Assembly: GCA_026016225.1 (NCBI GenBank)
Contig: CP061210.1
Span: forward strand, 450,000 to 513,999
Source of the DNA: Candidatus Nealsonbacteria bacterium
GTDB lineage: Bacteria; Patescibacteriota; Minisyncoccia; Minisyncoccales; JANBVM01
DNA length: 64,000 nt
Reading direction: 5' to 3'
Below, one piece after another: positions 12,280 through 41,940 of this stretch (position 1 is its first letter; each line of letters begins with the position of its first letter). A program made the translations under genes and the position numbers. The notes beneath the pieces were generated by a model, which worked only from the letters and a program-made list of their open reading frames with translations, ran no database searches and had not been told where the DNA came from.

Positions 12280-12288
12280 ATTCTATCA
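12280..12288 (-). promoter_or_regulatory. Extended -10 box TGATAGAAT, 6 nt from the ATG (leaderless-type)
   Basis: Minus strand reads TTTTTTGATAGAATacaaatATG, directly after a terminator T-run. Confidence 0.5.
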
Positions 12289-12354
12289 AAAAATCGCCTA
12301 AAAGGCGATTTTCTGAAGCTAACTCCCACTATTGGACGCGTTCAGAACCGTTGA
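12288..12354 (-). repeat. S-type intergenic repeat (tRNA-Gln 3'-end-like core plus terminator hairpin)
   Basis: Minus strand: AACGGTTCTGAACGCGTCCAATAGTGGGAG...AAATCGCCTTTTAGGCGATTTTTT. Confidence 0.6.
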
Positions 12355-12411
12355 TTGGGGAAAGATTAGAGAAAATCTTCAAGATTTGAAGACTCTTTTG
12401 GTTAAAGTTTA

Positions 12412-12446
12412 AATAAAAAAATGGTTTATCTGTTTAAACAAACCAT
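12412..12446 (-). terminator. Rho-independent terminator of 12459..12836
   Basis: Minus strand: ATGGTTTGTTTAAACAGATAAACCAT followed by TTTTTTT. Confidence 0.65.
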
Positions 12447-12458
12447 TTAAAATGTTTT

Positions 12459-12836
12459 TTAACCATCTATCGTTTCTGTGTAAACCCCAGCCTCTTCCGC
12501 TGCCACCATTAGTTTTCCATCGGGAACTTCATTACGAGAACGCATAACATCAATTCCTTCCTCATCAGTTCTCTTAACTAAAGCTTTCGTTTCAAGCTGT
12601 TTTTCATTTTCAACTCCATCAAGCCAAGTAACACTTGGATAAAGACTCCAAGAGCCATCTTTATTCTGTATTTCTACTTTTCTTAGAAGCATTACTCTGT
12701 TTCCATCTTTTTTCGGAAGAGCTGGGTCATAATTACAATGACACGATAATTCAATTAAATTTTCTTCATCAAAACGAAGAGCAATTTCTTTATAGGTGCC
12801 TCTTAAATAATCCTTCGTCTCTACTATTCTTTCCAT
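12459..12836 (-). CDS. Hypothetical protein (125 aa)
   Basis: ORF with SD-like AAGGAAGAGAGGTG upstream. No recognisable motif. Confidence 0.5.
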   Translation of the reverse strand: MERIVETKDYLRGTYKEIALRFDEENLIELSCHCNYDPALPKKDGNRVMLLRKVEIQNKDGSWSLYPSVTWLDGVENEKQLETKALVKRTDEEGIDVMRSRNEVPDGKLMVAAEEAGVYTETIDG

Positions 12837-12887
12837 TGTTAAAGAATCACCTCTCTTCCTTATTTAGCAAACTCTACAATAAAAGTC

Positions 12888-12948
12888 AAGACCGAGCCAA
12901 AGGCTCGGGCTTCAATAACTCCAAGAGACGGACAAGGTTAGAACCTCT
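12888..12948 (-). repeat. S-type intergenic repeat
   Basis: Minus strand: AGAGGTTCTAACCTTGTCCGTCTCTTGGAGTTATTGAAGCCCGAGCCTTTGGCTCGGT. Shares an exact ~31-nt block with 13674..13738. Confidence 0.7.
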
Positions 12949-12966
12949 TTAATGAAGGTTTTGGAA

Positions 12967-12992
12967 TAAAAAAAAGAGGTTAGTAGCCTCTT
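12967..12992 (-). terminator. Rho-independent terminator of 12992..13576
   Basis: Minus strand: AAGAGGCTACTAACCTCTT followed by TTTTTTT. Overlaps the stop codon. Confidence 0.6.
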
Positions 12993-13576
12993 TAAGAAGT
13001 TTCTATAGACAAAACAGGGGTTGTTGCCAATTCAAGTCCAGAATCATCAAGGCGTTCAAGCACCATCTCGTCACCGATAATAAGCTTTGTTATCTTGCAA
13101 CGACTGAAATCAAGTGGTTTTCTATCACGAGAAACGTTCCGCTCCCCTTCCTCGTCCTTGCCAAAACGATATACAGAGTTCCTGGTTTTAACTATAAATG
13201 ATCCATTGGGAATTTCTTGCTCTTTCCTTAGCTTCAAGCCTAAAACCCTTTTATAGATGTCTGAAAACATTTCTTGAGTTTTACTAAACCCAACAATTTC
13301 ATGATGTCTGCCTCCTATGTCGGGATGTTGGTATTCTGGGTCTCTGTTGTAACGTTTTTTTAAGGAATCCAGATATTCTTTATGTTGTTCTAATAAATCC
13401 AACACTTCTTTGATTTTTTCTTCGTCTTGGTCGGTTGCGTGCATTAAGACATTAATAACATCGAATAACAGGCCTTCCCCATAACTATCTAAAATCTCTT
13501 CTACTCTTTTATACAAAGAGCCAAGTTTATCTTTTAGAAGTTTTTTTGCAGCTTCAACATTAAACCTTTCTACCAT
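12992..13576 (-). CDS. Hypothetical protein (194 aa)
   Basis: ORF only. Looks less AT-rich than its surroundings. Confidence 0.5.
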   Translation of the reverse strand: MVERFNVEAAKKLLKDKLGSLYKRVEEILDSYGEGLLFDVINVLMHATDQDEEKIKEVLDLLEQHKEYLDSLKKRYNRDPEYQHPDIGGRHHEIVGFSKTQEMFSDIYKRVLGLKLRKEQEIPNGSFIVKTRNSVYRFGKDEEGERNVSRDRKPLDFSRCKITKLIIGDEMVLERLDDSGLELATTPVLSIETS

Positions 13577-13673
13577 TTATATCATCTCTTTTATATTCCT
13601 TTTCATACTAAAGATTATTCAATTTTACATATTCCACTGATGAGTCTTCCATAAATTTAGAGATTAGTCAAAT

Positions 13674-13738
13674 AAAAACCCGAGCCAAAGGCTCGGGCTT
13701 CAATAACTCCCCGCAATAGACGATGTTAGAACCTGTTA
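13674..13738 (-). repeat. S-type intergenic repeat
   Basis: Minus strand: TAACAGGTTCTAACATCGTCTATTGCGGGGAGTTATTGAAGCCCGAGCCTTTGGCTCGGGTTTTT. Confidence 0.75.
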
Positions 13739-13760
13739 TCTTTGCTGTTTGTTTTTGCGG

Positions 13761-14261
13761 TTATTCTACACCGTCTTCGATTACTATATGCTCTTCGTCA
13801 TCGTCTAGTGGCTCAAAACGTTTTTTGAAAGTTTTAATTGCCGCTTCGTTTATATAAAAAGCGTCTTTTGGTGAATCATCGCTACGTTTTAAAGTTCGTT
13901 GCTTCATCAATTCATCGGAGCATTTAATGTGATAGAGCTGAAAATTTGCCCCTGCTTTTGTGATGCGATCTCTCATTTCATCTCGTCGAGACCTACTCCA
14001 AAAACCATCGTCCAGAATGATATCAACACCAGCTTTTAGACATTTAAAAGCGGTATCTAACAAAAGCTTGGTCGTTCGTTCATGGTACTCGGCAAACTTT
14101 TCAGCGGGTGGATTGCTACCGTATAGAGAAATCATCCACTCATCGTTTGTAAATCGCAAAGCACCTGTTTTCTTTTCAAGCTTTTTAGCAAATGTAGTTT
14201 TACCAGCACCGACGAACCCATAAAGCATATGAGCAACGGGCTTTTTATTAGACTTTTTCAT
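13761..14261 (-). CDS. P-loop kinase / AAA_33-like ATP-binding protein (zeta-toxin-like fold)
   Basis: Walker A GFVGAGKTTFAKKL and Walker B-like IILDDGFW. 166 aa. Confidence 0.65.
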   Translation of the reverse strand: MKKSNKKPVAHMLYGFVGAGKTTFAKKLEKKTGALRFTNDEWMISLYGSNPPAEKFAEYHERTTKLLLDTAFKCLKAGVDIILDDGFWSRSRRDEMRDRITKAGANFQLYHIKCSDELMKQRTLKRSDDSPKDAFYINEAAIKTFKKRFEPLDDDEEHIVIEDGVE

Positions 14262-14535
14262 AAAAAACGTTTTGAGTTGTAATCGATTATATCACCAAGC
14301 GGAGCAAAAACAAATGGCAGATAACTCGTTTTTATACGAAGTCTATTCATAATTTATAATAAAAATGTATATTATACGAAATCATGATCAAATTACATAA
14401 TCCTTCCTTAGATTAACTCTATTAAGAGGGGTGTCAAGAAGAAAATATGGCTATCGTCTTCTTAGTTTTCCCTTTTTATAAGCAAGGTTTTCTACCTTCA
14501 AAATAACTCTATTTTCCGAAAAATTCAAGGAAACT

Positions 14536-14716
14536 AAAACCCGAGTTTCTAGCTCGGGTTGAGTGGTCACGTAAAATGACTGCGTCGTCACGTGGCCGCG
14601 TGATGAATTCTGTAAAGAATTCATTTTACGCGGCTCCGGCGGCAGGATTCGAACCGAGGCCTCTCGGTCCTCGAACTACGCACAGCGATGCTGGCATCCT
14701 CGGTCTAGAACTTGAA
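14536..14716 (-). repeat. T-type composite repeat (tRNA-like GGTTCGAATCC...CCGCCGGAG fragment plus unique long hairpins)
   Basis: Minus strand: AGTTCTAGACCGAGGATGCCAGCATCGCTGTGCGTAGTTCGAGGACCGAGAGGCCTCGGTTCGAATCCTGCCGCCGGAG..., ending in CCCGAGCTAGAAACTCGGGTTTT. Confidence 0.7.
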
Positions 14717-14796
14717 TTTCAAAAAAAATAGGAGAAAGAAATTTCTTATTTCATCTCCCTTAATATCTCATTATCTGAATAAATTGATTAAATTAC

Positions 14797-15099
14797 TTAG
14801 TTCTTTAGTGCTTGTTTAAGTTCTCTAGCAGATTTTTCAAGTTTATTTATAACTTCTTCTCTCCAAACTTCCTCTTTTTCTTTTTTTTCCTTTGGCCACA
14901 CTATCTCTCCCAAAAGGACACAAAAAACATAGTAATTGATTTCGGGTTCATCCCACTTACCTTCGTTGTAATTCCACTCTTCTAGCAGAACTCCATTTTC
15001 TTCTGCTATTCTTTCAGCTATCCTCCTCTCCCACTTTTCAAGTACAATCGCTTTTCCCAATTTTATACCTGATTCACCATAATCATAATAATATGACAT
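14797..15099 (-). CDS. Hypothetical protein (100 aa)
   Basis: ORF with SD AAAGGAGTGA upstream. No motif. Confidence 0.5.
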   Translation of the reverse strand: MSYYYDYGESGIKLGKAIVLEKWERRIAERIAEENGVLLEEWNYNEGKWDEPEINYYVFCVLLGEIVWPKEKKEKEEVWREEVINKLEKSARELKQALKN

Positions 15100-15200
15100 C
15101 CAATCACTCCTTTTTTTATTTTTAAAATATCTTTTATATTATTTAAAGTTACAATAATTTATTAAAAAAAGCAAGTTCATTACAGCTTGAAAAAAATTAA

Positions 15201-15276
15201 CTCCGGCGGCAGGATTCGAACCCCTCTCGGTCGTCCTAGGAGGATAGGCGTCTCGGTCTCTTGAACCAAGCACAAG
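15201..15276 (-). repeat. T-type repeat (tRNA 3'-half-like fragment)
   Basis: Minus strand: GCTTGGTTCAAGAGACCGAGACGCCTATCCTCCTAGGACGACCGAGAGGGGTTCGAATCCTGCCGCCGGAG. T-loop plus acceptor-like strand but no 5' half. Confidence 0.7.
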
Positions 15277-15345
15277 TATTATTCTTCATTCTAATAGTAA
15301 GCAAAATGTAAGTTGGAGGATTGGAATTTCTATACTTGCTCCTGA

Positions 15346-16539
15346 TTATTTCTTTCGAATTATTGATGGTATAAATGTATTTTCGCCCGTCCATCTGCCT
15401 GCGGCAGTAATATTCTCTCCAGATTGAAAATCTTTTAATTCTACCTTGCCTCCATCTTTGTTCAAAAGTGTCGTTTTCTCGGTAATTGCCAAACTTATTT
15501 CCTTCCCTTGCTCATCTCGTATTGTGATGACTTTGGCACTTAATGCTATATCTGTAATTGTTCCTATTATAGTTTCGAGAAGGTATTTTTCTATGTTCTC
15601 TTTGTGTTCCTCGTAGGTTTTGGCAAGGTGAATTTGCCCCTCGCTGTCGTGTAAGTAGTAAAGGTAATCGCTGGGCTGGTCGTAGACTACTGCTTCAATT
15701 GCTGCTAATCCCGGATTGCAGATTGGGGCTGGCGGTTTACCTTCGTGCAGGTAAGTATTATATGGCGATTCTATTTTGTATTCTTCTGGCGTTACTGGTC
15801 TCCACCACCTGCCTTGTTCTCCGACAACGTATTGGATGGTTGCGTCAATTTCTAACGGCATTGGTTTAAGCAATCTGTTCCAAATAATTCCCGCTATCAA
15901 CGGCATCTCTTCTTCATTGGCTGCTTCTCTTTGAATGATAGAGGCAAGAATGATTGCGGTATCATTACGGATGTTTTGCTCTGCGAATTCTTTAAATATT
16001 TCTTGACACTTCTCATTAAAATTACTTTCCATTCTTTTAGCCGCTTGTTCTGCCATATTTTCAAAATTAAGCACTTGAAGTAAATAAGTGTCGGGGAACA
16101 AATATCCTTCTTTGGCGTAATCTAAGAATTCCTCTTTTCTGTTGTCTAACCAATAAAGTTCTTCTTGTAATATCTCGGCAATTTCTTCCTTCCGCAGTCC
16201 TTCTGGTATTACTACCCAATTCTGGTATCGAAATCTAATAAAAGTATCTACTAAAGTCCAGACATTCATATTTTTTGAAATTTTGTATCCACCTGGCTCT
16301 ATCTTTCCTTCCCATCCTTTTGTTTTTAATACAAACCTAAATGCCCACTCGCTTCTTATATAACCCTGTTCTTTTAGTTTATATATTAGTTCTTCTTCGG
16401 TTGTACCGAGATTAATAACGATTCTCTCCATTTCTAATCCTTTTTCTGGAGCTGAAAATAAACATTGGTATATTCCAATAGGAATCCCTATCACCAAAAT
16501 TATCCCGCTTATAATTCCAATTTTTTTATTTCTAGTCAT
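15346..16539 (-). CDS. mltG: Endolytic murein transglycosylase MltG (YceG-like) with C-terminal extension
   Basis: N-terminal TM segment. KEGYLFPDTY and LASIIQREA motifs of the YceG family. Confidence 0.8.
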   Translation of the reverse strand: MTRNKKIGIISGIILVIGIPIGIYQCLFSAPEKGLEMERIVINLGTTEEELIYKLKEQGYIRSEWAFRFVLKTKGWEGKIEPGGYKISKNMNVWTLVDTFIRFRYQNWVVIPEGLRKEEIAEILQEELYWLDNRKEEFLDYAKEGYLFPDTYLLQVLNFENMAEQAAKRMESNFNEKCQEIFKEFAEQNIRNDTAIILASIIQREAANEEEMPLIAGIIWNRLLKPMPLEIDATIQYVVGEQGRWWRPVTPEEYKIESPYNTYLHEGKPPAPICNPGLAAIEAVVYDQPSDYLYYLHDSEGQIHLAKTYEEHKENIEKYLLETIIGTITDIALSAKVITIRDEQGKEISLAITEKTTLLNKDGGKVELKDFQSGENITAAGRWTGENTFIPSIIRKK

Positions 16540-17276: not shown

Positions 17277-17521
17277 CTTTGCTTTTTTTCTATTCTCTTA
17301 TTTAGATAACCCTGGAGAAAGAAATAAACAACAAAAAACACTAAAGCACCAATTAATGATTCAATTAAATCAAATTGTCCGTGCCGAAGGTATTTTACTA
17401 GTGAAAAAGCAATAAAAAACGAAACTGTTGTGATGATCGCAATCGGCAAAGGATTCTTTTTTTGTTTTAGATTACTTCTTAACATATTTCCTTGATTTAT
17501 TACTGTAATAAAATAAGGCAA
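17273..17521 (-). CDS. Small membrane protein
   Basis: 82 aa, two hydrophobic segments. Start uncertain because it overlaps the upstream ORF. Confidence 0.35.
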   Translation of the reverse strand: MPYFITVINQGNMLRSNLKQKKNPLPIAIITTVSFFIAFSLVKYLRHGQFDLIESLIGALVFFVVYFFLQGYLNKRIEKKQR

Positions 17522-17892: not shown

Positions 17893-18049
17893 AAAAACCG
17901 CCCGAGAGGCGACTTTTTGTTTATACTTAAAATTCGATTTCCTAGACGGATATGGCGATTTTTTCTCGAACTGCTTTTAAAATATGAGGACTTTCGGTCG
18001 CTCGAAAGGTCTCACTAGTCTGCTCTACTACTGAGATTAGAACCTGTCT
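17888..18049 (-). repeat. Composite S/T-type repeat
   Basis: Minus strand: AGACAGGTTCTAATCTCAGTAGTAGAGCAGACTAGTGAGACCTTTCGAGCGACCGAAAGTCC...GTCGCCTCTCGGGCGGTTTTTT. Starts ~10 nt after the pyrD stop. Confidence 0.7.
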
Positions 18050-18058
18050 AATGGGTAT

Positions 18059-20613: not shown

Positions 20614-20709
20614 AAAAAATCAAGCTTAAAATGAGCTTGATTTTACTATCTTGGCTCTTGGACGCTTGCCCTTCCGAAGCTAAAGCTGAGGAAGGATGTT
20701 AGAACCTGA
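20614..20709 (-). repeat. S-type intergenic repeat with internal hairpin insertion
   Basis: Minus strand: (TAG stop)TCAGGTTCTAACATCCTTCCTCAGCTTTAGCTTCGGAAGGGCAAGCGTCCAAGAGCC...ATCAAGCTCATTTTAAGCTTGATTTTTT. Confidence 0.7.
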
Positions 20710-21237
20710 CTAAGCTATCCCATCTCTTAAACTTTTATCTGATGTATTATTATATTTACCTTTCCAAGTATCTTTCTTACCTTTCTTTAGAATCTTATCA
20801 ACCAGTTCAATTTCTTCTCTAAGACCAGGAACGAATTTGTATTTATCTAACTCAACTGCTGTAATCCAGGCATAATCTACTGATTCTTCTGAAAGTTTAA
20901 CCTCTCCTGAACCATAGTCACAATAAAGACTAATAATTATAGTTGGAATATCATCTGCTCTAATGAAAGAAAGACTTAAAAGGTAACGAATGTTTTTAAC
21001 CTTTAATCCGACTTCTTCTTCAATTTCTCTTTCTAAAAGATTTTCCAGGACATTATACCAGTGGTCAGCTGTGTCTTTGGGCAGGCTTGAGTAATCACTC
21101 TGTTTAAGTTTTCCTCCAGGAACCGTCCAAAGTCCTGGAAATGCTTTTTCTTTTGGACTTCTTTTTGTAATCAAATATTTACCATCTTTAACAATAATTC
21201 CAGTAACTACTACATAGTGAAGTTTTTTGTCTATCAT
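20710..21237 (-). CDS. NUDIX hydrolase
   Basis: NUDIX box GGKLKQSD...LLEREIEEEVGL. 175 aa. Confidence 0.8.
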   Translation of the reverse strand: MIDKKLHYVVVTGIIVKDGKYLITKRSPKEKAFPGLWTVPGGKLKQSDYSSLPKDTADHWYNVLENLLEREIEEEVGLKVKNIRYLLSLSFIRADDIPTIIISLYCDYGSGEVKLSEESVDYAWITAVELDKYKFVPGLREEIELVDKILKKGKKDTWKGKYNNTSDKSLRDGIA

Positions 21238-21581: not shown

Positions 21582-21653
21582 AAAACCCGAAACAACAACT
21601 CTCGGGCAAAAAATCGTAACTCCCGCCGACTGGACGCTGTTAGAACCTGTTTG
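21582..21653 (-). repeat. S-type intergenic repeat
   Basis: Minus strand: CAAACAGGTTCTAACAGCGTCCAGTCGGCGGGAGTTACGATTTTTTGCCCGAGAGTTGTTGTTTCGGGTTTT. Confidence 0.75.
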
Positions 21654-22927: not shown

Positions 22928-22990
22928 AAAACCCGATAAAAATTCTCGGGCGTGCCATGTTGCGGATATTGGATGATATTACCTGTTCAG
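22928..22990 (-). repeat. S-type intergenic repeat (divergent core)
   Basis: Minus strand: GAACAGGTAATATCATCCAATATCCGCAACATGGCACGCCCGAGAATTTTTATCGGGTTTTG. Confidence 0.6.
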
Positions 22991-24997: not shown

Positions 24998-25063
24998 AAA
25001 AACCCGAGAAAAGAAAAACTCTCGAGCCGGGCCATGCTGCAGGTCTTGGACGAGAAAGTTTAA
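24998..25063 (-). repeat. S-type intergenic repeat (5'-truncated core)
   Basis: Minus strand: AAACTTTCTCGTCCAAGACCTGCAGCATGGCCCGGCTCGAGAGTTTTTCTTTTCTCGGGTTTTT. Confidence 0.6.
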
Positions 25064-25480: not shown

Positions 25481-25554
25481 AAAAAAATCAAGTTCAGAAC
25501 GAGCTTGATTTTACTCACTGGGGGCCTTGGACGATGTTAGAACCTGTTTTATGA
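25481..25554 (-). repeat. S-type intergenic repeat
   Basis: Minus strand: TCATAAAACAGGTTCTAACATCGTCCAAGGCCCCCAGTGAGTAAAATCAAGCTCGTTCTGAACTTGATTTTTTT. A separate terminator precedes it. Confidence 0.8.
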
Positions 25555-26532: not shown

Positions 26533-26604
26533 AAAAAATCAAGTTCACTCTGAGCTTGATCTTAGCATCTGCGGGTCTTGGACGATTTTAGAATTTGTTC
26601 GATG
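26533..26604 (-). repeat. S-type intergenic repeat
   Basis: Minus strand: CGAACAAATTCTAAAATCGTCCAAGACCCGCAGATGCTAAGATCAAGCTCAGAGTGAACTTGATTTTTT. Confidence 0.75.
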
Positions 26605-27756: not shown

Positions 27757-27897
27757 CTTAAAATCCGAGACAATCCGCCAGCTGGCAGAACCCGGGTTTT
27801 AAAAGCCCCCTTAGTCGGTCTCGAACATAGTTTTTAAGGGGAAACTAAGGGCTTTTTGAAGGTGTCCCACAATGCCCCTCGGTCGGAGCTGTTTTAA
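27757..27897 (-). repeat. L-type long intergenic repeat
   Basis: Minus strand: AAACAGCTCCGACCGAGGGGCATTGTGGGACACCTTCAAAAAGCCCTTAGTTTCCCCTTAAAAACTATGTTCGAGACCGACTAAGGGGGCTTTTAAAACCCGGGTTCTGCC... Confidence 0.7.
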
Positions 27898-27909: not shown

Positions 27910-28938
27910 TTAGTCTAAAATTTCTGTGAACCATCTTTTGATCACTTCTTTTGTTTTTGGGTTCTGTTCAATAAAAAATCCTGGAAGATCTACTTCGAGA
28001 AAATAAAATCTAAAAGCAAAAAATCCAACAACCTTGTCCTTTCCCTTTTCAAGCACTATTTCATAGGCTCTGGCAATCTCTTCTTCATTCCAAGGTCCGC
28101 CCATCAACACTCCAAATTCAGTAATTATGACACCCTTGCAGCCATCCCTCTCTGCTTTGGCGAGCATGAAATCTAAAGCTCCTTCAACACTTTCTGAATA
28201 CTCTTCTAACGTCTGCTCAGACATTAACATACTGCCAAACCCTATATAATCATATCCTGCGAAATCGCCCGGGGGCTGTTCAGGTGTTTTGGATATCGAT
28301 TCTTTATCAGGAAAGCCAGGCATAGCCCCATTCCAAGCAACCTCGCCATTGTAAACCTCTTTTATCTTTAGGAGAATCTCCTGTCTCCACACTCCAATAT
28401 TTTTCTTAAAAATCTTCTCCGGTTCATTTAAAGGAGTAAAAAGTTCAACATCATACTCTTCTGCCAGTTTAGCCACCTCAATGATTCTGGAATTAAGAGC
28501 TTCTAAATCTACGTTTTCTGGCACAGGAGGATCCCCTACAGTTAATGCAACCTTCAAACCATTTCTGTGAACAGTTTGGATGTTATTAATTATAAGCTCT
28601 TTTTCAACAGGAAGGATCTCTTTAAGCTTTTCAAGCAGCTCAGGAGAAAAAACTTCTCTAATTCTTTCAAAATCAGGCTCGGCAAGAGGAGAAAGGGCCG
28701 CAATGAAAATCGTATTGATCCCAAGATCTTTCAGCTTCTGTATATTGGAAGCCAGGTAATTCGGATCCTGAAGCAATAACGTGGGCATCCAAGCTCCTTT
28801 ATAAATATAAACTTCTTCCTCTGCTTTTTCTTCCTTTGTTTTTTCCGTATCAGCAACAAAAATATTTTTATAGACAAAAAATCCTCCTATACCTAAACCA
28901 ATCAAAATTATTAAAATGATTAAAGTTTTTGTTTTCAT
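27910..28938 (-). CDS. Secreted/anchored TIM-barrel glycoside hydrolase-like protein (GH5-like)
   Basis: N-terminal TM helix. FTPLNEPE (acid/base NEP) and VIITEFGV (nucleophile-like) motifs. Confidence 0.5.
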   Translation of the reverse strand: MKTKTLIILIILIGLGIGGFFVYKNIFVADTEKTKEEKAEEEVYIYKGAWMPTLLLQDPNYLASNIQKLKDLGINTIFIAALSPLAEPDFERIREVFSPELLEKLKEILPVEKELIINNIQTVHRNGLKVALTVGDPPVPENVDLEALNSRIIEVAKLAEEYDVELFTPLNEPEKIFKKNIGVWRQEILLKIKEVYNGEVAWNGAMPGFPDKESISKTPEQPPGDFAGYDYIGFGSMLMSEQTLEEYSESVEGALDFMLAKAERDGCKGVIITEFGVLMGGPWNEEEIARAYEIVLEKGKDKVVGFFAFRFYFLEVDLPGFFIEQNPKTKEVIKRWFTEILD

Positions 28939-29327: not shown

Positions 29328-29398
29328 AAAAACCCGATAAATAATCTCGGGCTAAACAGAGCTCCGGGGGCTGGACGATGTTCAAACCTATTTTATGA
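29328..29398 (-). repeat. S-type intergenic repeat
   Basis: Minus strand: TCATAAAATAGGTTTGAACATCGTCCAGCCCCCGGAGCTCTGTTTAGCCCGAGATTATTTATCGGGTTTTT. Confidence 0.75.
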
Positions 29399-29539
29399 AT
29401 AATAAAGAGGTTTTTGAGATGCCAGTTTTGGCTGATCTTTGATCTTACCCCACCCTGCTACTCACTATTTTAAAATATAGCTCAAAAAAAACAACCCACC
29501 GAGAAAATCCCGATAGGCTGTCTTTTATTTAAGACTGGA

Positions 29540-30506: not shown

Positions 30507-30586
30507 CTACCAAAAAACCGCCCTCTTGAGAAAACGATTGAAGTTGGCTGTGGGTCATGGACGACATTAGAACCTGTTTTATGACT
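30507..30586 (-). repeat. S-type intergenic repeat
   Basis: Minus strand: TCATAAAACAGGTTCTAATGTCGTCCATGACCCACAGCCAACTTCAATCGTTTTCTCAAGAGGGCGGTTTTTTGG. Confidence 0.75.
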
Positions 30587-32394: not shown

Positions 32395-32450
32395 TACGAA
32401 TCGAACCCCTCTCGGTCTCTCGAAAGTCTCACAGCTTAGCTCCCCCTAAT
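32395..32450 (-). repeat. T-type repeat fragment
   Basis: Minus strand: GGGGAGCTAAGCTGTGAGACTTTCGAGAGACCGAGAGGGGTTCGATTCG. Confidence 0.6.
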
Positions 32451-32715
32451 ATATGACTCGGCTATGGAAATAACTATGGGAACACCAAATATGAGAACCC
32501 AAAACCACCAAAATGGCTTTATAAAAGTTATCCAAAATGTTCTTATTAGTTTCGTATAATCAATGTGGATCATTCTTTATTGATTTTAACACAAAATAAG
32601 ACAAATGAGAGAGTATAAAAAGGTTCGACATGATTTTAATATTATTAAAAAATCAGAGTTGACACGATTTTTAGTTCACAAAATTTTGATTTTTGACAAA
32701 TAGTTATTTCTCTTA

Positions 32716-35210: not shown

Positions 35211-35249
35211 CTCAGCCCCCCCTGGTGCCACAATTTTAGAATCTGTTCT
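35211..35249 (-). repeat. S-type core (divergent, no adjacent hairpin)
   Basis: Minus strand: GAACAGATTCTAAAATTGTGGCACCAGGGGGGGCTGAG. Confidence 0.5.
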
Positions 35250-36293: not shown

Positions 36294-36385
36294 AAAACCC
36301 GAGCTAAATGCTCGGGCTTTAAAAACTTGCACTGAGCTTGCCGAAGTGCTCCCCGCAATAGACGATGTTAGAACCTGTTTTATGA
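36293..36385 (-). repeat. S-type intergenic repeat (long spacer)
   Basis: Minus strand: TCATAAAACAGGTTCTAACATCGTCTATTGCGGGGAGCACTTCGGCAAGCTCAGTGCAAG...GCCCGAGCATTTAGCTCGGGTTTTT. Confidence 0.8.
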
Positions 36386-36525: not shown

Positions 36526-36650
36526 AAACTAATTGTTTAGTTATCAATTAAAACCCTTACTATATTTTATCAAAAAACCACCTAACTGATTATGAAAAAA
36601 AAGCCCAAGAATGGGCTTGATTTCATTTATTTGATTTACTGAATTAATTC

Positions 36651-36848: not shown

Positions 36849-36951
36849 GATTGTGATATAAATTAATTAATATTTTAAGGTTTTATCCTAAAGTTTAGTT
36901 TCCTGAAAAAACTCAACTAAATTTTCATTAGGCAACTATCTTATGTAAATA

Positions 36952-36980
36952 ATATTAACATCTAAAAAATAATTGGTCAA
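36952..36980 (-). promoter_or_regulatory. Sigma70-type promoter of the csp gene (TTGACC-17 nt-TAATAT), giving a ~100-nt 5'UTR
   Basis: Minus strand: TTGACCaattattttttagatgtTAATAT. Confidence 0.5.
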
Positions 36981-37110
36981 CCAAAAAACCACCTAACTGA
37001 TAAGGTGGAAAATGCGAGCTCCCATACTCGGTCTAGAACCTTTGTTTTAAGGGGAAATTCAGCAGTTTTTGGAGCCTTTGAATAACGCGTCTCGGTCAGG
37101 GTATTTTAAG
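36981..37110 (-). repeat. L-type long intergenic repeat
   Basis: Minus strand: CCCTGACCGAGACGCGTTATTCAAAGGCTCCAAAAACTGCTGAATTTCCCCTTAAAACAAAGGTTCTAGACCGAGTATGGGAGCTCGC...CCACCTTATCAGTTAGGTGGTTTTTTGG. Confidence 0.7.
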
Positions 37111-37141
37111 CTAAAATGAGACAAATGAAACAGTAAATAGG

Positions 37142-37939
37142 CTAAAGAATATATTTTTCTTCAACTAAGAATCCTGGATGTTTAAAGATAGCTATAGCGA
37201 ACTTGTTATCTGGGGAGGTAACAATATAATTGTGTTTATCTTTATCTAATGGCACGGGCTCATATTTTTTCACGCTTGAGCCCTCAGGGATATATTGAAG
37301 ATCAAAAACAGGAGAAATAAAATAGCAATTAGCGTTTACCTTAAAGAACTCGTCTAAATCTTCGCTTTTGTAATTCAAAAAGTCCCTTTGATAAACCAAA
37401 ACAATCTCTTCGTAATTTTTTACTATCATTTGAAGTTTTTCAACATCTATGGGTCGGAAGGGAGATAAGGAATCACCTACTAAATTTTCATAATCAACAT
37501 ACTCTTTAACTTGGAAAAGATAAGGTAAATGTTCCGCAGGCAATCTGAGCTGTTTATCGTCCAATTTATCAATCTTTACTCCGGGTTCAACAATCATCAC
37601 CGCAGTATCGCACGAGGATTCTTTTTTTGGCAAAACAACAAAAATTAAACTACCGGAAGGGAACTTACTTTCCAAATATCTGAGGAATACTGTTGTAATA
37701 AATAACTCTTTTACCTTCTGTCCGTCTATTTGTTTACTGGCTACTGTAAGTTGGTCTTGTGCATTTAATTTGAAAATAGAATCGGTTAATATTTGGGCAT
37801 CAACAGGAATTACACTACCAGGCGGAAGATTCTTGAATTTATATGCTAAAGCAGCTCTAAAAATCTCTTCATAAACTCCCTGACAATTTACTCCCTCCTC
37901 ACGGCGATAGCCAAAAATTATTTTCCATGGTGTTTGCAT
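37142..37939 (-). CDS. Hypothetical protein (265 aa), third gene of a three-gene operon
   Basis: ORF only. Starts 6 nt after the upstream gene. Confidence 0.5.
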   Translation of the reverse strand: MQTPWKIIFGYRREEGVNCQGVYEEIFRAALAYKFKNLPPGSVIPVDAQILTDSIFKLNAQDQLTVASKQIDGQKVKELFITTVFLRYLESKFPSGSLIFVVLPKKESSCDTAVMIVEPGVKIDKLDDKQLRLPAEHLPYLFQVKEYVDYENLVGDSLSPFRPIDVEKLQMIVKNYEEIVLVYQRDFLNYKSEDLDEFFKVNANCYFISPVFDLQYIPEGSSVKKYEPVPLDKDKHNYIVTSPDNKFAIAIFKHPGFLVEEKYIL

Positions 37940-37945
37940 TATAAC

Positions 37946-38203
37946 TTACTTCAGGTCAATATTTTTTATTCTATCTAAAATTTTTTGATACCATTGAATT
38001 TGTTTTATTGTATCTTCAAAATCGTAATATGTTAATTTCCTATGTATTCTATTCCAAATAGCTGATCTTGTTATCGTTCCATTTTTGAAGAAAATATACA
38101 TCTTGGATTCAACAGAAGCGCCACCGTACACAAGCGGATATGTTCTAACAGTTTCGCCCCTCTCTTTTGCTTCTTCTTTTATTAGTTTTGTTAGCTCTGT
38201 CAT
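37946..38203 (-). CDS. Hypothetical protein (85 aa)
   Basis: 4-nt ATGA overlap with the upstream ORF. Confidence 0.45.
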   Translation of the reverse strand: MTELTKLIKEEAKERGETVRTYPLVYGGASVESKMYIFFKNGTITRSAIWNRIHRKLTYYDFEDTIKQIQWYQKILDRIKNIDLK

Positions 38204-38754
38204 ATTTTCAAAATTTTAATTTTCTTAATTTTTTCTTTCATAAGAACTTTAATTAATTTATCCCAGTCTCCAGTTATATGCAATTCTCCTCTTTCAATCG
38301 CCCTCTCAAGGTTGGTCTTTCTTTCTAATAATAAGAAAGAAAAGTCTCCTAATTTTTGTTCATCTGGATAGTATTTGTAGTTGGTGTTTTCAGAAACAGT
38401 CAGGTAAATACACTTTATTTCTTTATTGACTCTTTTTATAGAGCCAAATACCTTTTTTATATTTTCAACTCCCTCTTTTGAATAAATCCCTCTGAATTTT
38501 ATTTCCAAAACTGCAATAACTTGCTTAGGTTTATAAAGTAAATTTTCTTGAGCTTTTTCTCCTTCTTTTAGCACTATCAAATCTAATTCATAAGGAATGC
38601 CTTTGATAAAAACATCTCTATTACTTACATTGAGTCCCTTTTTAATGAACTCTTTTCTTAAAAGCTCGATAGTTAATGCACCAATGAATTTGGTAGCTCT
38701 CATTTCGTTCCTAAATTTCATTATTGTGTTTAGTAGTTTGAGTTCCTTTTTCAT
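38200..38754 (-). CDS. PD-(D/E)xK nuclease-fold candidate (184 aa)
   Basis: YELDLIVLK ... VIAVLEIKF spacing fits a D...ExK catalytic core, with a preceding helix Glu (LTIELL). Confidence 0.4.
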   Translation of the reverse strand: MKKELKLLNTIMKFRNEMRATKFIGALTIELLRKEFIKKGLNVSNRDVFIKGIPYELDLIVLKEGEKAQENLLYKPKQVIAVLEIKFRGIYSKEGVENIKKVFGSIKRVNKEIKCIYLTVSENTNYKYYPDEQKLGDFSFLLLERKTNLERAIERGELHITGDWDKLIKVLMKEKIKKIKILKI

Positions 38755-38836
38755 CTATTTTATGATTTCTAAAAATCAGTTTCTCTGCTTTTAAAATAAC
38801 CTCATTTCTTTGAAATTTCAAGCCGAAATAAAAATT

Positions 38837-38850
38837 GCCCAGCGATGGGC
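38837..38850. terminator. Hairpin GCCCAGCGATGGGC with flanking A/T runs (copy 1 of 3 identical)
   Basis: aaaaattGCCCAGCGATGGGCtttttaaat. Identical 14-mers at 61905 and 63214. Confidence 0.6.
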
Positions 38851-38894
38851 TTTTTAAATCAAATTAAGAAAAAACTAATTTATCCATCAAAAAT

Positions 38895-39674
38895 TTAAAC
38901 ATCCATTTTTTCTTCAGCAACTTGTTTAATCTTCTGTTGAATTTTCTCTTTAAATTCCTTACCAACTGAATCAAATAGTGTTAAAAGCTGTTCGAAGGTA
39001 TCTTCGCCACCGAGAAAATTCCAATATTCTTCACCAATTAAAAATTCTTTTCCTCTTTCTAAAACTCCTTGTTCTGTAAATCTTTCGTATGGCTTTGGAT
39101 GATAGGGATTATAGGGGAAAGATAGGAAAACTTTTACTGGTTTTCTGCGCCGTGCTATCCATTCTAATAATTTTGTCTTTGATTTTGTAAAAACATCGAT
39201 ATTAGGTTTTACGGTTTTAATTTCAAAATAATGTTCTACGCCCCCTTTAAGTATATAAAGGTCAGCTATTCTACCTTCTTTCTGAGCCTTACCATCTCTT
39301 GGAGAAGCACTTAAAACTTCTTTCATTTCTCTTTCACTATTTACCCTTCTTTCCTTATTCCTTAATTCGCGGACTATATTACCTATAATGGACTTTTGCT
39401 CTTTTGAAAGTACGCCACCAATATCATATTTAGTAAAACATTCTTTGGCAGAATCAGAAGCAATAATTTTTGAAACGTCTTCATAAATAGACATTCCTAA
39501 CGTCGTAGCTAAAGAATGAATAAAGGAATAAGCAGCAACTTTTTCGCTGTCTTGAATAAGACGAGTAAGAAATGGCATTGAGGTAGTTTCTCGGCTATAT
39601 CTTTTTAACTTACTCTCAATTTTTTGCTGTAATAATCCTTTAATCTGTTGTTTTTGATTGCTTGATAATGGCAT
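38895..39674 (-). CDS. Probable type II restriction endonuclease (TdeIII-like by recollection)
   Basis: Starts 5 nt after the methyltransferase gene. FIHSLATTLGMSIYE and YFEIKTVKPN (ExK-like) motifs. The family assignment needs an HMM check. Confidence 0.45.
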   Translation of the reverse strand: MPLSSNQKQQIKGLLQQKIESKLKRYSRETTSMPFLTRLIQDSEKVAAYSFIHSLATTLGMSIYEDVSKIIASDSAKECFTKYDIGGVLSKEQKSIIGNIVRELRNKERRVNSEREMKEVLSASPRDGKAQKEGRIADLYILKGGVEHYFEIKTVKPNIDVFTKSKTKLLEWIARRRKPVKVFLSFPYNPYHPKPYERFTEQGVLERGKEFLIGEEYWNFLGGEDTFEQLLTLFDSVGKEFKEKIQQKIKQVAEEKMDV

Positions 39675-39679
39675 AGGAT

Positions 39680-40855
39680 CTAGTGATTTTTAATAAAATA
39701 ATAAATGCTTTCGCTAAACCTTATGTTGTCACGCTCTGTTCTCATAAGAACAGGGCGGTGATATATTTTTTCAATACTGTAATTACAAAGTTTAGCGATG
39801 TCCGGATAGAGATTATCTCTGTCATTAACAACGACAAATATTTTTGCTTTTGGTTTCAACCACTGATTAATATTTTTAAAAACTTCAATAATATCCCTTT
39901 TATACTCTTCTTTGGCTTCCTGACTTTTGCCTTTTGATGCAGGGCCAATTTCTTTTACACAATTATTATCAAACCCAAAAAGCTCATAAGCATAACGGTG
40001 TTGGTCGTGATAATCGATTAAGCCAATATAGGGAGGAGAGGTAAAAATGCCGTCAAATTTACCACCCTTATAATCCGGAAGCTCATTTAGTTTTATTTCC
40101 CTTGAGTCTCCTTGAATAATTTTCATTTTAGCGTTAGTTCTTAACTCATCAAATTCTTTAATACGCCTTATAGTACCTAAACTGTAACGATTTATGAATT
40201 TTAGAGCTTCATCAACTGGCCGACATGTCCTCTTGTGTTTTATACACCAATAGGGCTTTTTTATTGGCTTTTTAGGTCTTGCCAAATCATAATGAGGTAT
40301 TTGACGAGCACTCCGAGCCGAACGACTTAATATTATTTTTAGGATATCTTGGTTTTTATAATTTTTAATTTGTTCTCGATAAAACAAAATCTCCTGCAAT
40401 GCTCTTTTAGAGAACCATGTATTGAAATAATTATTATCTATCGTAAACTCTTTGTATCCCTTTTTAAACAAGGCAGGTTGTTTTGAATGTCGATACCAAT
40501 TACTAAAATCTTTTGTTTTAGATAGAATATCCTTAATCTCAGCTTCTACTTCTGGAATGTTATATTTTTTTGTTTTAATTTCAGAAATTAAACAATTAAA
40601 AAGGGAAATCTCTATACCTGCTGAATTCATACCAAGGATGTTAGATTCAATAAGAGCAGTTCCTGACCCCAAAAAGGGATCTAATATCCAATCTCCTTTT
40701 TTGAAGTAATGTTTTAAAAATGCCTCTACGAGTTGCGGTATAAATTTACCTAAATAAGGATGTAAACGATGGACATGTTTTGTTCTTTTATATTCTTGCA
40801 CATTGGCAAAAGATAAATCTATCCCGTTTAATGATGTTAGAGATTTGTTTGACAT
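39680..40855 (-). CDS. DNA methyltransferase (N6-adenine/N4-cytosine type)
   Basis: DPFLGSGT (SAM motif I) in the N-terminal part and FTSPPY (catalytic motif IV) in the C-terminal part. Confidence 0.75.
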   Translation of the reverse strand: MSNKSLTSLNGIDLSFANVQEYKRTKHVHRLHPYLGKFIPQLVEAFLKHYFKKGDWILDPFLGSGTALIESNILGMNSAGIEISLFNCLISEIKTKKYNIPEVEAEIKDILSKTKDFSNWYRHSKQPALFKKGYKEFTIDNNYFNTWFSKRALQEILFYREQIKNYKNQDILKIILSRSARSARQIPHYDLARPKKPIKKPYWCIKHKRTCRPVDEALKFINRYSLGTIRRIKEFDELRTNAKMKIIQGDSREIKLNELPDYKGGKFDGIFTSPPYIGLIDYHDQHRYAYELFGFDNNCVKEIGPASKGKSQEAKEEYKRDIIEVFKNINQWLKPKAKIFVVVNDRDNLYPDIAKLCNYSIEKIYHRPVLMRTERDNIRFSESIYYFIKNH

Positions 40856-40902
40856 ATCTATTCCTTAATTTACCTTACACTTATTTTTGTTTTTTATCAA
40901 AT

Positions 40903-40938
40903 GATTTTTGACAATTTTTGACGACTTTTGACAAAAAA
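40903..40938 (-). promoter_or_regulatory. Three helically phased direct repeats GTCAAAA (10-nt period) upstream of the methyltransferase gene
   Basis: Minus strand: TTGTCAAAAGTCGTCAAAAATTGTCAAAAATC. Lies ~50-80 nt upstream of the ATG. Confidence 0.45.
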
Positions 40939-40960
40939 CGAAGCCTTATGGTTTCGCTAG
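40936..40960 (-). terminator. Rho-independent terminator of 41051..41704
   Basis: Minus strand: CGAAACCATAAGGCTTCG followed by TTTTTTG. Confidence 0.5.
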
Positions 40961-40978
40961 GATAATTTTTTTATATAG

Positions 40979-41105
40979 ATTTTGGCTGCTTGCATTGAGC
41001 TTGCCGAACTGCTAGCATTCTCGGTCCAGAACAGAAATTTTAAGAGGAAATTAAGGGCTTTTTGGGGGTGTTTCAGAACGCGTCTCGGTCGGTTCGTCTT
41101 TGGTG
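40979..41105 (-). repeat. L-type long intergenic repeat (overlaps the 3' end of the upstream ORF)
   Basis: Minus strand: GACCGAGACGCGTTCTGAAACACCCCCAAAAAGCCCTTAATTTCCTCTTAAAATTTCTGTTCTGGACCGAGAATGCTAGCAGTTCGGCAAGCTCAATGCAAGCAGCC. Confidence 0.7.
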
Positions 41106-41704
41106 GGTTGCGGCGGCTGGGTTGCGGCGGACGGCTTTTTCTTCTTATAGACCCAGGAATATATCCATTCTATGGGCATCGGCTTCACTTGTTTTTTTGA
41201 TATTTTTTCAATTTCTTGATTTAGATAAAAAAGCATTATACTTGCAATCGTTAAAAAATCACCTCTAGCTCCCTCTGGATAAATACTTCTTGCCTCTTGT
41301 AAATTTCTTACAATATCGGAAGAGTAAATTAAAGTAGTTAATAGGTCTTTTACAACACCACTTTCTAGATTTGAGCCATATACATTATGAGCAAAATCAT
41401 TTCTTATTTTTCTTATTATATGAAGATCATGCGCAAGTTTTTGACTAATTAAACCTAAACGATGTGCAAATTGTACTTTCGAATTGAAATTTGACAGGGG
41501 AGCTGTAGGACCATCAAATAATTCATCATCCTTGGTGCTTACCTGAACAAGATAATTTTTTAATAAAGTAGTTAGTGTGTTCTCAATTAGAGAGGCGGTT
41601 AAAATCATGGCCGCACGATCTGTTTCTTTAGAAAACTCCTCTAAAAGAAAATCTGCCCAATATTCTGGCAAACTTTTTTTTATTTTTTTTTCATTATCTG
41701 GCAT
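41051..41704 (-). CDS. DUF4145-like protein (domain common in R-M/abortive-infection contexts)
   Basis: IRKIRNDFAHN motif. Start moved to MPDNEKK because the upstream 25 codons lie in the tRNA-like repeat. The Pro/Thr-rich C-terminal tail is encoded by the L-type repeat. Confidence 0.5.
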   Translation of the reverse strand: MPDNEKKIKKSLPEYWADFLLEEFSKETDRAAMILTASLIENTLTTLLKNYLVQVSTKDDELFDGPTAPLSNFNSKVQFAHRLGLISQKLAHDLHIIRKIRNDFAHNVYGSNLESGVVKDLLTTLIYSSDIVRNLQEARSIYPEGARGDFLTIASIMLFYLNQEIEKISKKQVKPMPIEWIYSWVYKKKKPSAATQPPQPTKDEPTETRSETPPKSP

Positions 41705-41759
41705 AAATTTATATATATTTTTCGTTAATCTCGAAACTATATCTACATCCGCTGACGTC

Positions 41760-41869
41760 CTCTCGGTCGCAAAAACCAAGCACTAACCTGCTCCGGCGTT
41801 AGGATTCGAACCCCTCTCGGTCGCCCTAACGCCATAAGCGTCTCGGTCCTCGAACTGCGCTCAACGATG
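41760..41869 (-). repeat. T-type tRNA-like repeats directly abutting the 3' end of tRNA-Gln
   Basis: Minus strand after the tRNA: GCATCGTTGAGCGCAGTTCGAGGACCGAGACGCTTATGGCGTTAGGGCGACCGAGAGGGGTTCGAATCCTAACGCCGGAGCAGGTTAGTGCTTGGTTTTTGCGACCGAGAG. It contains a 9-bp stem, GGCGTTAGG/CCTAACGCC. Confidence 0.75.
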
Positions 41870-41940
41870 CTGCGGGGCTAGGATTCGAACCTAGATTGAG
41901 TTCTTCAAAGGAACCTGTGCTACCATTACACCACCCCGCA
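41870..41940 (-). tRNA. tRNA-Gln (anticodon UUG)
   Basis: Minus strand: TGCGGGGTGGTGTAATGGTAGCACAGGTTCCTTTGAAGAACTCAATCTAGGTTCGAATCCTAGCCCCGCAG. Manual cloverleaf has a 7-bp acceptor (U1-A72), anticodon loop CTTTGAA and T-loop TTCGAAT. No encoded CCA. Confidence 0.85.

Follow-up and report, generated by a model that had tools for sequence, protein, structure and literature searches.

The 64,000-nt stretch of Candidatus Nealsonbacteria contig CP061210.1 analyzed here (positions 450,000 to 513,999 of the contig; hereafter the window) carries a family of short, co-oriented intergenic repeats, led by a conserved element designated motif A. The repeats trace to a tRNA 3′ end, keep one strand polarity per region, are patchily present among related lineages and are enriched at the breakpoints of cassette indels and translocations between genomes that are 87–99% identical. 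Considering these patterns, we hypothesize that the repeats serve as DNA-level junctions or recombination sites of mobile, promoter-bearing, self-contained gene cassettes; drawn from sequence comparison, this explanation has in our judgment about an even chance of being correct. The original prediction, made from the letters of the window, had described some 22 co-oriented tRNA-Gln-like repeats between positions 12288 and 41940. The repeats do exist, but they are more widely spread and more varied than that description had it.

Motif A and its variants in the window

The element is a 33-base pseudo-tRNA 3′ end composed of a 21-nt core, AAACAGGTTCTAACATCGTCC, followed by 3 + 7 variable bases and then G-C. 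A search of the window with the core AACAGGTTCTAACATCGTCCA returned eight matches at up to three mismatches, all on the minus strand, against none in 100 shuffles. A seed hidden Markov model (HMM) raised the number of strong copies to 11, and a second HMM (the foreign-copy HMM), trained solely on 221 copies from other genomes, recovered 12 window copies at E<0.01, again exclusively on the minus strand. The repeat thus stands up both to the shuffled control and to a profile scan.

The interval 12288–41940 holds about 21 elements: nine strong and five weak motif A copies, three near-exact tRNA-Asn-like 3′ ends, one related piece and three 80-nt variants. The predicted number and single orientation are therefore borne out, but the set is mixed. 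The weak, tRNA-Asn-like, related and 80-nt elements all share the orientation of motif A, whose window copies grade continuously from perfect to decayed, and nearly all minus-strand intergenic regions of at least 80 nt in this interval hold an element. Near-exact tRNA-Asn 3′ ends with a normal T-loop and no 5′ half number five in the whole window. Outside the interval lie three strong motif A copies and two tRNA-Asn-like copies (63287–63317 and 63348–63380). Because the copies at 59827–63380 are located past both tRNA-Gln and tRNA-Glu, the repeat field is not anchored on tRNA-Gln, contrary to the original prediction. The elements are given below; L-numbers (L016, L058, L133 and others) denote comparison loci from other genomes.

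Strong motif A copies
12919..12946 (-): copy AGGTTCTAACCTTGTCCGTCTCTTGGAG, GC hairpin next; foreign-copy HMM E 0.007
13707..13737 (-): copy followed by hairpin GCCCGAGCCTTTGGCTCGGG and a T-run; foreign-copy HMM E 7e-8, fold prediction
20686..20708 (-): copy with decayed tail, about 1 nt past the stop of the NUDIX gene 20710-21237; end of an L058 block; E 0.002
21623..21652 (-): copy 11 nt after the stop of the gene for a 402-aa protein; core search, foreign-copy HMM
25522..25549 (-): perfect core with tRNA-Gln-like tail; 5′ end of a ~525-nt cassette without counterpart in the 94–96% identical L133; core search, HMM, comparison
26569..26599 (-): copy whose tail TCCAAGACCCGCAG matches tRNA-Gln 3′ ends of the candidate phyla radiation (CPR) at 13/14 positions; left boundary of the dUTPase cassette (L125, L126, L133); comparison
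29361..29393 (-): copy with tRNA-Asn-like tail CCAGCCCCCGGAGC, 12/14; foreign-copy HMM, 8.6 bits with the tRNA 3′-end HMM
30547..30579 (-): copy, then hairpin and TTTTTTGGTAGAA (promoter-like -10); core search, fold, HMM
36348..36380 (-): copy within which a 96.7%-identical L058 block terminates, after ..TCGTC; HMM, comparison
59827..59858 (-): copy beyond 12288–41940; start of the RNA recognition motif (RRM) gene cassette common to L058 and L134; HMM, comparison
60845..60875 (-): copy beyond 12288–41940; core search, foreign-copy HMM
61792..61823 (-): copy beyond 12288–41940, then tRNA-Asn-type trailer GGAGCAGAATAGTG and hairpin CTCGGTTCGAGCGACCGAG; HMM, alignment

Weak, decayed or partial motif A copies
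12319..12349 (-): weak, decayed copy CAACGGTTCTGAACGCGTCCAATAGTGGGAG; HMM
17925..18052 (-): decayed copy (18013-18052) with a trailer of >100 nt homologous to the DNA 3′ of a real tRNA-Asn (L039); alignment
22961..22985 (-): weak copy GAACAGGTAATATCATCCAATATCCGCA; HMM
25036..25053 (-): partial motif TCGTCCAAGACCTGCAGC, comprising the tail and the 3′ half of the core, at the 3′ end of the cassette that L133 lacks; HMM, comparison
35231..35247 (-): weak copy 3′ of a radical-SAM (RlmN-like) gene; HMM

tRNA-Asn-like 3′ ends and a related piece
14633..14669 (-): true T-loop GGTTCGAATCCTGCCGCCGGAG, no 5′ half; end of an L133 block; 20.6 bits
15201..15232 (-): no 5′ half; 19.9 bits
41790..41822 (-): GGCGTTAGG pairing with CCTAACGCC, 50 nt 3′ of tRNA-Gln, then trailer GGAGCAGGTTAGTG; 19.4 bits
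63287..63380 (-): pair of tRNA-Asn-like 3′ ends linked by trailer GGAGCAGGCTAGTG and a hairpin, beyond 12288–41940; tRNA 3′-end HMM
32395..32424 (-): related piece GAGACCGAGAGGGGTTCGATTCG; repeat comparison

80-nt variants and the intact tRNA
27805..27884 (-): 80-nt variant (GACCGAG...CCCCTTAAAAAC..GTTCGAGACCGAC..); family D3
37018..37097 (-): 80-nt variant ending in AAACAAAGGTTCTAGACCGAGTATGGGAGC; the cold-shock protein (csp) cassette begins directly past its GGAGC; comparison
41011..41090 (-): 80-nt variant; family D3
41869..41940 (-): intact tRNA-Gln(TTG), whose U1-A72/G73 acceptor end the tails imitate; not a boundary of the repeat field; ARAGORN, Rfam

At about 6000–10000 of the window, the GC skew changes sign, gene orientation turns from plus to minus and the cumulative skew peaks. 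The switch may mark a replication terminus or origin, and its plus-strand side holds no motif copies.

Derivation from a tRNA 3′ end

Real tRNA-Asn(GTT) genes in the motif-bearing loci end in ...AGGTTCGAGTCCTACCCGCGGAGC (also as ...GGTTCGAGTCCTACCCGCGGAGC) and are followed by a trailer made of AGGCTAGTG, a GNRA-capped hairpin with GACCGA and then CATATTTT. The same trailer stands behind many motif copies, and one real tRNA-Asn 3′ half with its trailer aligns colinearly over more than 100 nt with five of them. Relative to a real tRNA, motif A has a G-to-T change (G57) and a 5-nt insertion in the T-loop, which can be written AGGTTCTA-ACATC-GTCC, so the earlier description of a T-loop and acceptor 3′ strand carrying an insertion of about 5 nt holds from the T-loop through to the discriminator base.

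The tails match CPR tRNA-Gln or tRNA-Asn 3′ ends at 11–13 of 14 positions in seven of the 11 window copies compared. The best tail match is Asn or Gln for 10 of the 11, with most tails closer to tRNA-Asn, and the constant ...A-G tail end follows from the U1-A72 pair and G73 that the two tRNAs share. The 12/14 match of copy 26599 to the local tRNA-Gln had been read correctly, and it rises to 13/14 against other CPR tRNA-Gln genes. An HMM of tRNA-Asn/Gln 3′ ends scored the true-T-loop copies at 14633, 15201, 41790 and 63287 at about 20 bits, versus 7.6 for the best shuffled window. Owing to the T-loop insertion, no more than one motif A copy exceeded that bar (8.6 bits); the case for motif A being tRNA-like therefore comes chiefly from the tails, the trailer held in common and the equivalence of position, not from the profile score by itself. 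Similarity to tRNA-Asn/Gln 3′ ends thus exceeds shuffled sequence in the true-T-loop variants, but in only one copy of motif A. Taken together, the comparisons support a tRNA 3′ end as the origin of the repeat, for which tRNA-Asn is no worse a model than tRNA-Gln; the source first named, tRNA-Gln, is retained as to the kind of molecule, but most tails resemble tRNA-Asn instead.

Distribution and strand polarity of the repeat

The repeat family is widespread in Patescibacteria, mainly in Parcubacteria-type lineages, and patchy between lineages. In a species-level genome collection, the exact 19-mer AACAGGTTCTAACATCGTC was found in more than 120 stretches among the matches listed, almost all from Patescibacteria, including Nealsonbacteria, Paceibacterota, Colwellbacteria, Moraniibacteriota and Nomurabacteria. 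These loci hold about 250 copies, and no locus carries the motif on both strands. The consensus, AAAcAGGTTCTAACaTCGTCCa followed by 6–7 variable bases and GGAGc, was unchanged in 120 copies not picked by the 19-mer, and the spacer from GTCC to GGAG/CAG measured 7 nt in 170 of the 199 copies with both flanks locatable. A collection of 2.9 million viral contigs yielded one motif match.

For 195 of 219 copies, the nearest upstream open reading frame (ORF) is a same-strand one, and the copy most often begins 0–20 nt past its stop codon, as the original prediction had it. Its hairpin and T-run following the copies were likewise recovered: the T-run starts 60–69 nt after the core start in 52 of 205 copies, and in 75 of 205 another T-run, upstream of the core, stops no more than 20 nt short of it. 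A simple terminator scan was insensitive here (18 found versus 12 expected). From these T-run positions, the usual order is gene (at times with its own terminator), core and tail, hairpin and T-run, -10 box and next gene. The units between repeats measure 0.4–3 kb, contain housekeeping-type genes and carry their own -10 boxes (TGnTAnAAT) or TTGACA-N17-TATACT promoters.

Polarity is set per region, not per gene. Among genes of at least 150 aa with a 3′ spacer of at least 70 nt, 118 of 299 on the motif strand are followed by a copy, versus none of the 64 opposite-strand genes in their own orientation, and the significance holds after allowing one seed copy per locus. No copy occurs in L122, L123, L129 and L130, about 56 kb of related loci carrying orthologues of window genes. 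The dUTPase gene of L122 shows 82% nucleotide identity and L123 66% protein identity, and L129 and L130 show 68% and 72% protein identity to the 402-aa gene.

Motif spacing is bimodal: distances between neighboring copies are either 46–91 nt, with nine pairs measuring exactly 55 nt, or 300 nt and more (L018, L024, L040, L047, L089 and others). Within a doublet, the atypical tail belongs to the first copy, and the second ends in the canonical ..GGAGC. A second conserved box, AATAGTGAGTAGCRGGGTGGGGTA, is present at 29446–29469 (-) of the window and in seven loci (L036, L043, L078, L093, L099, L112 and L026). A conserved element of about 110–125 nt ending in motif A, in which GAGTAGTGG pairs with CCACTACTC of the motif, was seen in L034, L036, L043, L078, L085, L090, L093 and L099. 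This element opens with the box in the five loci that the box search also matched, and the box also stands alone; neither the box nor the element has an Rfam match.

Hosts outside Patescibacteria comprise L016 (Zixibacteria chromosome OY970208.1), L100, L055 and L056 (a Terriglobales metagenome-assembled genome, MAG), with AcrB/TolC efflux genes nearby. In these genomes, the motif lies inside a conserved non-coding stretch, common to L016 and L100 over up to ~800 nt at 95.5% identity and to L056 over ~530 nt at 87–88%; the stretch occurs in varied gene contexts and has a degenerate second motif copy 83 nt further on. Three tandem 91-aa GIY-YIG ORFs are situated close by in L016, with a tRNA-like 3′ fragment just 3′ of the array. 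GIY-YIG nuclease-like ORFs of 82–106 aa also lie 80–170 nt past a motif copy in L052:518, L072:5579 and L116:2947, and another directly follows tRNA-Gln in L123:5387.

Cassette boundaries in close relatives

Comparison with close relatives revealed cassette-like units, as had been claimed, in that homology starts or stops at the repeat. L125 and L126 (88% identical) share with the window a single segment, which opens with motif 26599, spans the dUTPase-deaminase gene with its terminator and closes at the core of motif 25548; the flanking DNA is unrelated on both sides, and the next gene in L126 is an orthologue of window gene 27910-28938. In L058, on the Nealsonbacteria chromosome CP179887.1, 8 kb include four blocks that map to 37.0, 22.9, 59.8 and 21.2 kb of the window. 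Its RRM-gene block starts on the first base of a motif, and its cold-shock block (96.7% identity) runs from “GGAGC” to the core of the next motif. The 102-aa RRM-domain protein, encoded at 59357–59665 (-), forms a single-gene cassette that has other neighbors in L058, L130 and L134.

L133 (CP179891.1:549285-555482, from a complete 694,748-bp chromosome) contains window blocks at 94–99% identity in a different order, namely 15.2 kb, 37.0–35.3 kb, 26.6–25.55 kb and 25.02–24.5 kb in window coordinates. It is without the 525-nt unit from 25549 to ~25030, which consists of motif A, a 99-aa ORF with its terminator and a partial motif. The gene for the 402-aa protein is followed by a motif about 11–18 nt past its stop in the window, L058, L128 and L131, and the tail and downstream cassette differ each time; L128 and L131 are 96% identical over 258 nt up to ...ATCGTC, the end of the core, and unrelated past the end of the tail.

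An identical cold-shock protein is encoded on 13 contigs, and its cassette (95–97% identity) starts at (G)GAGC/TCGCATTT in eight contexts. Its left partner is motif A in L058, L135, L140 and L142, a tRNA-Asn-like end with a true T-loop in L133, L134 and L136, and an 80-nt variant in the window, so the place of the variant at 37018..37097 is held in seven other genomes by one of the other two forms. Because this partner varies, motif A, the tRNA-Asn-like end and the 80-nt variant are interchangeable, and as read from these alignments the joint of the csp cassette sits at the tRNA 3′-end position. In the window, direct repeats of ATCAGTTAGGTGGTTTTTTG (3′ half of a hairpin plus T-run) flank the csp cassette at 36570–36590 and 36980–37000 (-).

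To quantify the association, 20 distinct endpoints of blocks with at least 87% identity were compared with element positions. Ten of the 20 lay within 15 nt of an element, versus an expectation of 2.6% for all positions (P = 2e-11) and 14.3% for intergenic positions (P = 1e-4), and breakpoints cluster at motif positions ~21–33. Alignment of syntenic regions therefore gave a divided answer: half of the breakpoints and the cassette indel relative to L133 fall at elements, but the other ten breakpoints lie elsewhere.

Proposed cassette exchange and its alternatives

A DNA-level role is favored because orientation is uniform per region (0/64 on the opposite strand), about 56 kb of related loci are free of copies and 10 of 20 breakpoints fall at elements. 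In the mechanism we envisage, the repeats would be the seams of small self-contained cassettes, each composed of a terminator, a promoter and one to three genes, and a cassette would be joined to its neighbor at the position equivalent to a tRNA 3′ end, with a tRNA-Asn-like end, motif A or an 80-nt variant acting interchangeably as the left partner. The joining may be carried out by a putative trans-acting recombinase, in the manner of integrons or of attachment (att) sites in tRNA genes, or, alternatively, exchange may follow DNA uptake and proceed through the short shared sequences. With all sites in direct orientation, the arrangement of the cassettes in one-strand gene arrays would be explained.

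The resemblance to integrons lies in small co-oriented cassettes, each bounded by a recombination-site-like element just past a stop codon, in cassette order and content that vary between close relatives, and in a recombinase that would act in trans. An attC site is an imperfect palindrome (R''-L''/L'-R') acting as folded single-stranded DNA with little sequence conservation, whereas motif A is conserved and unstructured; its core and tail are predicted to be unpaired, the sole hairpin being the variable terminator with its T-run, in agreement with the earlier view that the sites are not attC-like. Unlike the mostly promoterless cassettes of integrons, those described here have their own promoters and terminators, and neither an intI integrase nor an attI platform was found in the 64-kb window. 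The pdif (XerC/D) modules of Acinetobacter plasmids are gene modules bounded by short sites and shuffled between replicons without a recombinase of their own. Discrete modules between short sites and the lack of their own recombinase are common to both systems. The dif sites, however, have two 11-bp inverted arms, a 6–8-bp spacer and alternating orientation, whereas motif A keeps a single orientation and has a 3-bp TCC/GGA symmetry. As a dif/Xer or Ter-like site, the motif gave partial hexamer matches only; its reverse complement shares ATGTTA with the XerD arm, which is a weak match.

Several results weigh against the cassette-junction hypothesis. Half of the close-relative breakpoints (10/20) are away from any element, and the right end of the csp cassette lies at the ATCAGTTAGGTGGTTTTTTG repeat, which is also present at its left end; since five breakpoints coincide with the right-hand copy or lie no more than ~80 nt from it, the motif is not the only intergenic module that acts as a seam. 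Simple two-site recombination would leave a hybrid site in L133 where the window has its extra cassette, and there is none. The variable 7-mer goes with the left flank in some cases and with the right flank in others. Adjacency across long intergenic regions is kept in 1 of 41 cases with the motif versus 4 of 91 without; a motif-specific loss of synteny is accordingly rejected as stated, with long motif-free intergenic regions losing adjacency as often.

Enzymes give no support either. Among all non-shadow window ORFs of at least 80 aa, Pfam detected no recombinase domain, which agrees with the original prediction, and a pattern scan of ~900 kb of motif-bearing loci found two tyrosine-recombinase-like ORFs and no serine-recombinase motif. 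With no enrichment of these two ORFs, a neighboring recombinase was discarded as the partner of the motif. As read from the sequence, the site is also without the dyad symmetry of two-arm recombinase sites. Because no recombinase was found, site-specific and homology-driven exchange are indistinguishable here, and these limits fit homology-assisted exchange or element-end transposition as well as a dedicated site-specific system.

The first alternative is that motif and trailer form the end of a non-autonomous transposable element, resembling miniature inverted-repeat transposable elements (MITEs) or REPINs, mobilized as single-stranded DNA in trans by an HUH (Y1) or other transposase, with neighboring genes carried by one-ended or read-through transposition. 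The patchy distribution and the range of copies from perfect to decayed suit such an origin, as does the uniform polarity, in which the motif strand is the coding strand and would correspond to the lagging-strand template if genes are co-oriented with replication. The L133 indel, which begins with the first base of the motif, takes in the whole partial motif and has no residual site, and the presence of a Y1_Tnp gene among the same cassettes in L134 point the same way. That gene is, however, flanked by another, inverted repeat, GGTGTCAACTCTGAATTT; the window contains no transposase, the motif A core has no hairpin and forms no inverted pairs, and an identical core across a phylum is unusual for MITEs. 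The likeness to repetitive extragenic palindromic (REP) sequences and their mosaic (BIME) and REPIN-RAYT forms extends to abundant, terminator-associated and lineage-patchy intergenic repeats 3′ of genes, with a Y1 transposase in a related locus. Yet REPs are palindromic, often in inverted pairs, and lineage-specific in sequence, whereas motif A is non-palindromic, never inverted and common across the phylum. On balance, we consider a transposable-element end unlikely.

A second alternative is punctuation at the RNA level, with the motif, in the 3′ untranslated region of the upstream gene, and the terminator together mimicking a tRNA 3′ end so as to guide processing, stability or termination, in the style of REPs or mitochondrial t-elements. 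It draws on the same-strand ORF upstream in 195 of 219 cases, often 0–20 nt past its stop, on the hairpin and T-run at a preferred distance, on a trailer identical in kind to the terminator of real tRNA-Asn genes, and on retention of the core after the 402-aa gene in four genomes whose coding DNA is only ~77% identical. The structural expectations of such a signal, however, were not borne out. A complementary 5′ partner for the variable tail was not found beyond cross-locus controls, whether in 50 or 140 nt of upstream sequence or in 90 nt of downstream sequence; for eight window units, the only fold predicted is the terminator hairpin, with the core unpaired; the 55-nt doublets show neither consensus structure nor covariation; and Rfam 15 returned nothing except tRNAs at gathering or E-value thresholds. 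Within the window, ARAGORN and Rfam identified tRNA-Gln and tRNA-Glu only.

In mitochondria, tRNAs and t-elements punctuate transcripts as tRNA-like folds cleaved by RNase P and RNase Z. The placement of tRNA-like sequences at the ends of coding units is shared with the present repeats, but the acceptor 5′ strand is missing here and no conserved fold exists, and a t-element or tRNA-like processing signal was set aside for want of a tRNA-like fold. Distribution also disagrees with RNA-level punctuation: opposite-strand genes of the same loci have no copies (0/64), and the motif comes and goes along with the cassette. A housekeeping expression signal is disfavored because related loci carrying orthologues dispense with the repeat. 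Judged by nucleotide identity, copies at matching positions in close relatives diverge no more slowly than their flanks. With an upstream flank in common, the core of 25548 is 82% identical to that in L126 versus 88% for the flank, and that of 36379 is 95% identical to L058 versus 96.7%; where only the downstream cassette is shared, the values for 26599 and L126 are 71% versus 87%. With no partner, no fold, region-wise orientation and orthologue-bearing loci without the repeat, the RNA-level role that had been raised as an alternative is disfavored, and we regard it as quite unlikely.

Further candidates of a related kind were rejected. A functional, hidden, split or permuted tRNA is out, with the complementary 5′ strand missing on both sides, as is a known RNA family, with no Rfam match. 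A promoter element is eliminated by the loose spacing between motif and -10 box and by the terminator that separates them. By reading, the three bases before the core are mixed and bear no frame relation, which eliminates a small ORF or backup stop codon.

The explanation favored in the original prediction was that elements carrying an integrase had entered the local tRNA-Gln one after another and that the repeats are the decayed att duplications of these events. The copies are indeed partial tRNA 3′ ends in direct orientation, and integration at tRNA genes is known to leave such repeats and arrays of remnants, as in the tycheposons of Prochlorococcus, whose partial-tRNA att repeats belong to tRNA-targeting integrative elements (bioRxiv 10.1101/2020.12.28.424599). 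Among described systems, these partial-tRNA repeats are the nearest analogue: cargo is enclosed by direct repeats of a tRNA 3′ segment, arrays and remnants accumulate, islands vary between close relatives, and in the present loci some copies are near-exact tRNA-Asn 3′ ends and one cassette abuts the tRNA-3′-end position. In contrast to such repeats, the main repeat here is a fixed non-tRNA variant, differing from every real tRNA by one and the same T-loop insertion in all sampled lineages and shared by many lineages of Patescibacteria. The units are single genes with their own promoter, 0.4–3 kb long and of housekeeping type. No integrase or remnant is present on or near them in the window ORFs, and none is enriched in the ~900 kb of loci. 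Instead of forming one island, copies extend over at least 50 kb on both sides of tRNA genes, including both tRNA-Gln and tRNA-Glu. A phage attP site was likewise rejected on the single match in the viral collection, and near-absence from 2.9 million viral contigs also argues against integrating elements. Serial integration at tRNA-Gln is therefore very improbable.

It is scarcely credible, finally, that the motif is a polar protein-binding DNA site (a roadblock or insulator, a replication-oriented signal or a DNA-uptake sequence) with recombination as a side effect of repeated sequence: an asymmetric, unstructured, conserved 21-nt sequence of regionally uniform polarity, confined to intergenic DNA, would suit this role, but the motif is missing from related loci, its single copies decay, it travels with cassettes, and known uptake or orienting sequences are much shorter and are also present within genes.

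Implications

Much of the uncultured diversity of bacteria falls within the Patescibacteria, whose genomes are minimal and which are generally regarded as poor in mobile elements. No description of the motif sequence or of the phenomenon was found in the literature searched, nor in Rfam. A conserved pseudo-tRNA site at many seams between exchangeable single-gene cassettes would be a concrete vehicle for the turnover of gene content in this group. More broadly, and as a tentative proposal that we hold to be somewhat doubtful, a large part of the chromosome in many Parcubacteria-type Patescibacteria could be a genome-wide, integron-like field of promoter-bearing cassettes exchanged at pseudo-tRNA(Asn/Gln) 3′-end sites by a putative recombination system; if true, such a field would explain why genes lie in one-strand arrays and why gene order is lost quickly even in genomes so small.

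The 33-nt motif would offer a search handle for mapping this turnover in thousands of MAGs, and it helps to mark transcription-unit boundaries in genomes without transcriptomes. During annotation, programs that call tRNAs, pseudogenes or genomic islands could be misled by the motif and its variants. Should there be a dedicated recombinase, tool developers could find its long asymmetric site of interest. The L133 chromosome CP179891.1 is the best available reference for a full comparison with the window.

Other features of the loci

In L134, an IS200/IS605-type Y1 transposase gene (Y1_Tnp, positions 3275–3973) has inverted GGTGTCAACTCTGAATTT repeats on either side. The same 13-mer occurs twice in intergenic DNA of the window, at 32653–32665 and 63387–63399, which suggests a separate REP-like family. 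A TFIIB-like protein with two TFIIB cyclin repeats and a zinc ribbon is encoded at 43778–44662 (-) of the window and also at L123:1255–2178, in an otherwise bacterial context (DnaB, EF-P, MraZ, PBP, pol III); L134 has a Zn_ribbon_TFIIB ORF. At 38895–40855 (-), the window encodes a type II restriction-modification pair, a TdeIII-like endonuclease and an N6/N4 methylase, which forms one unit between intergenic elements.

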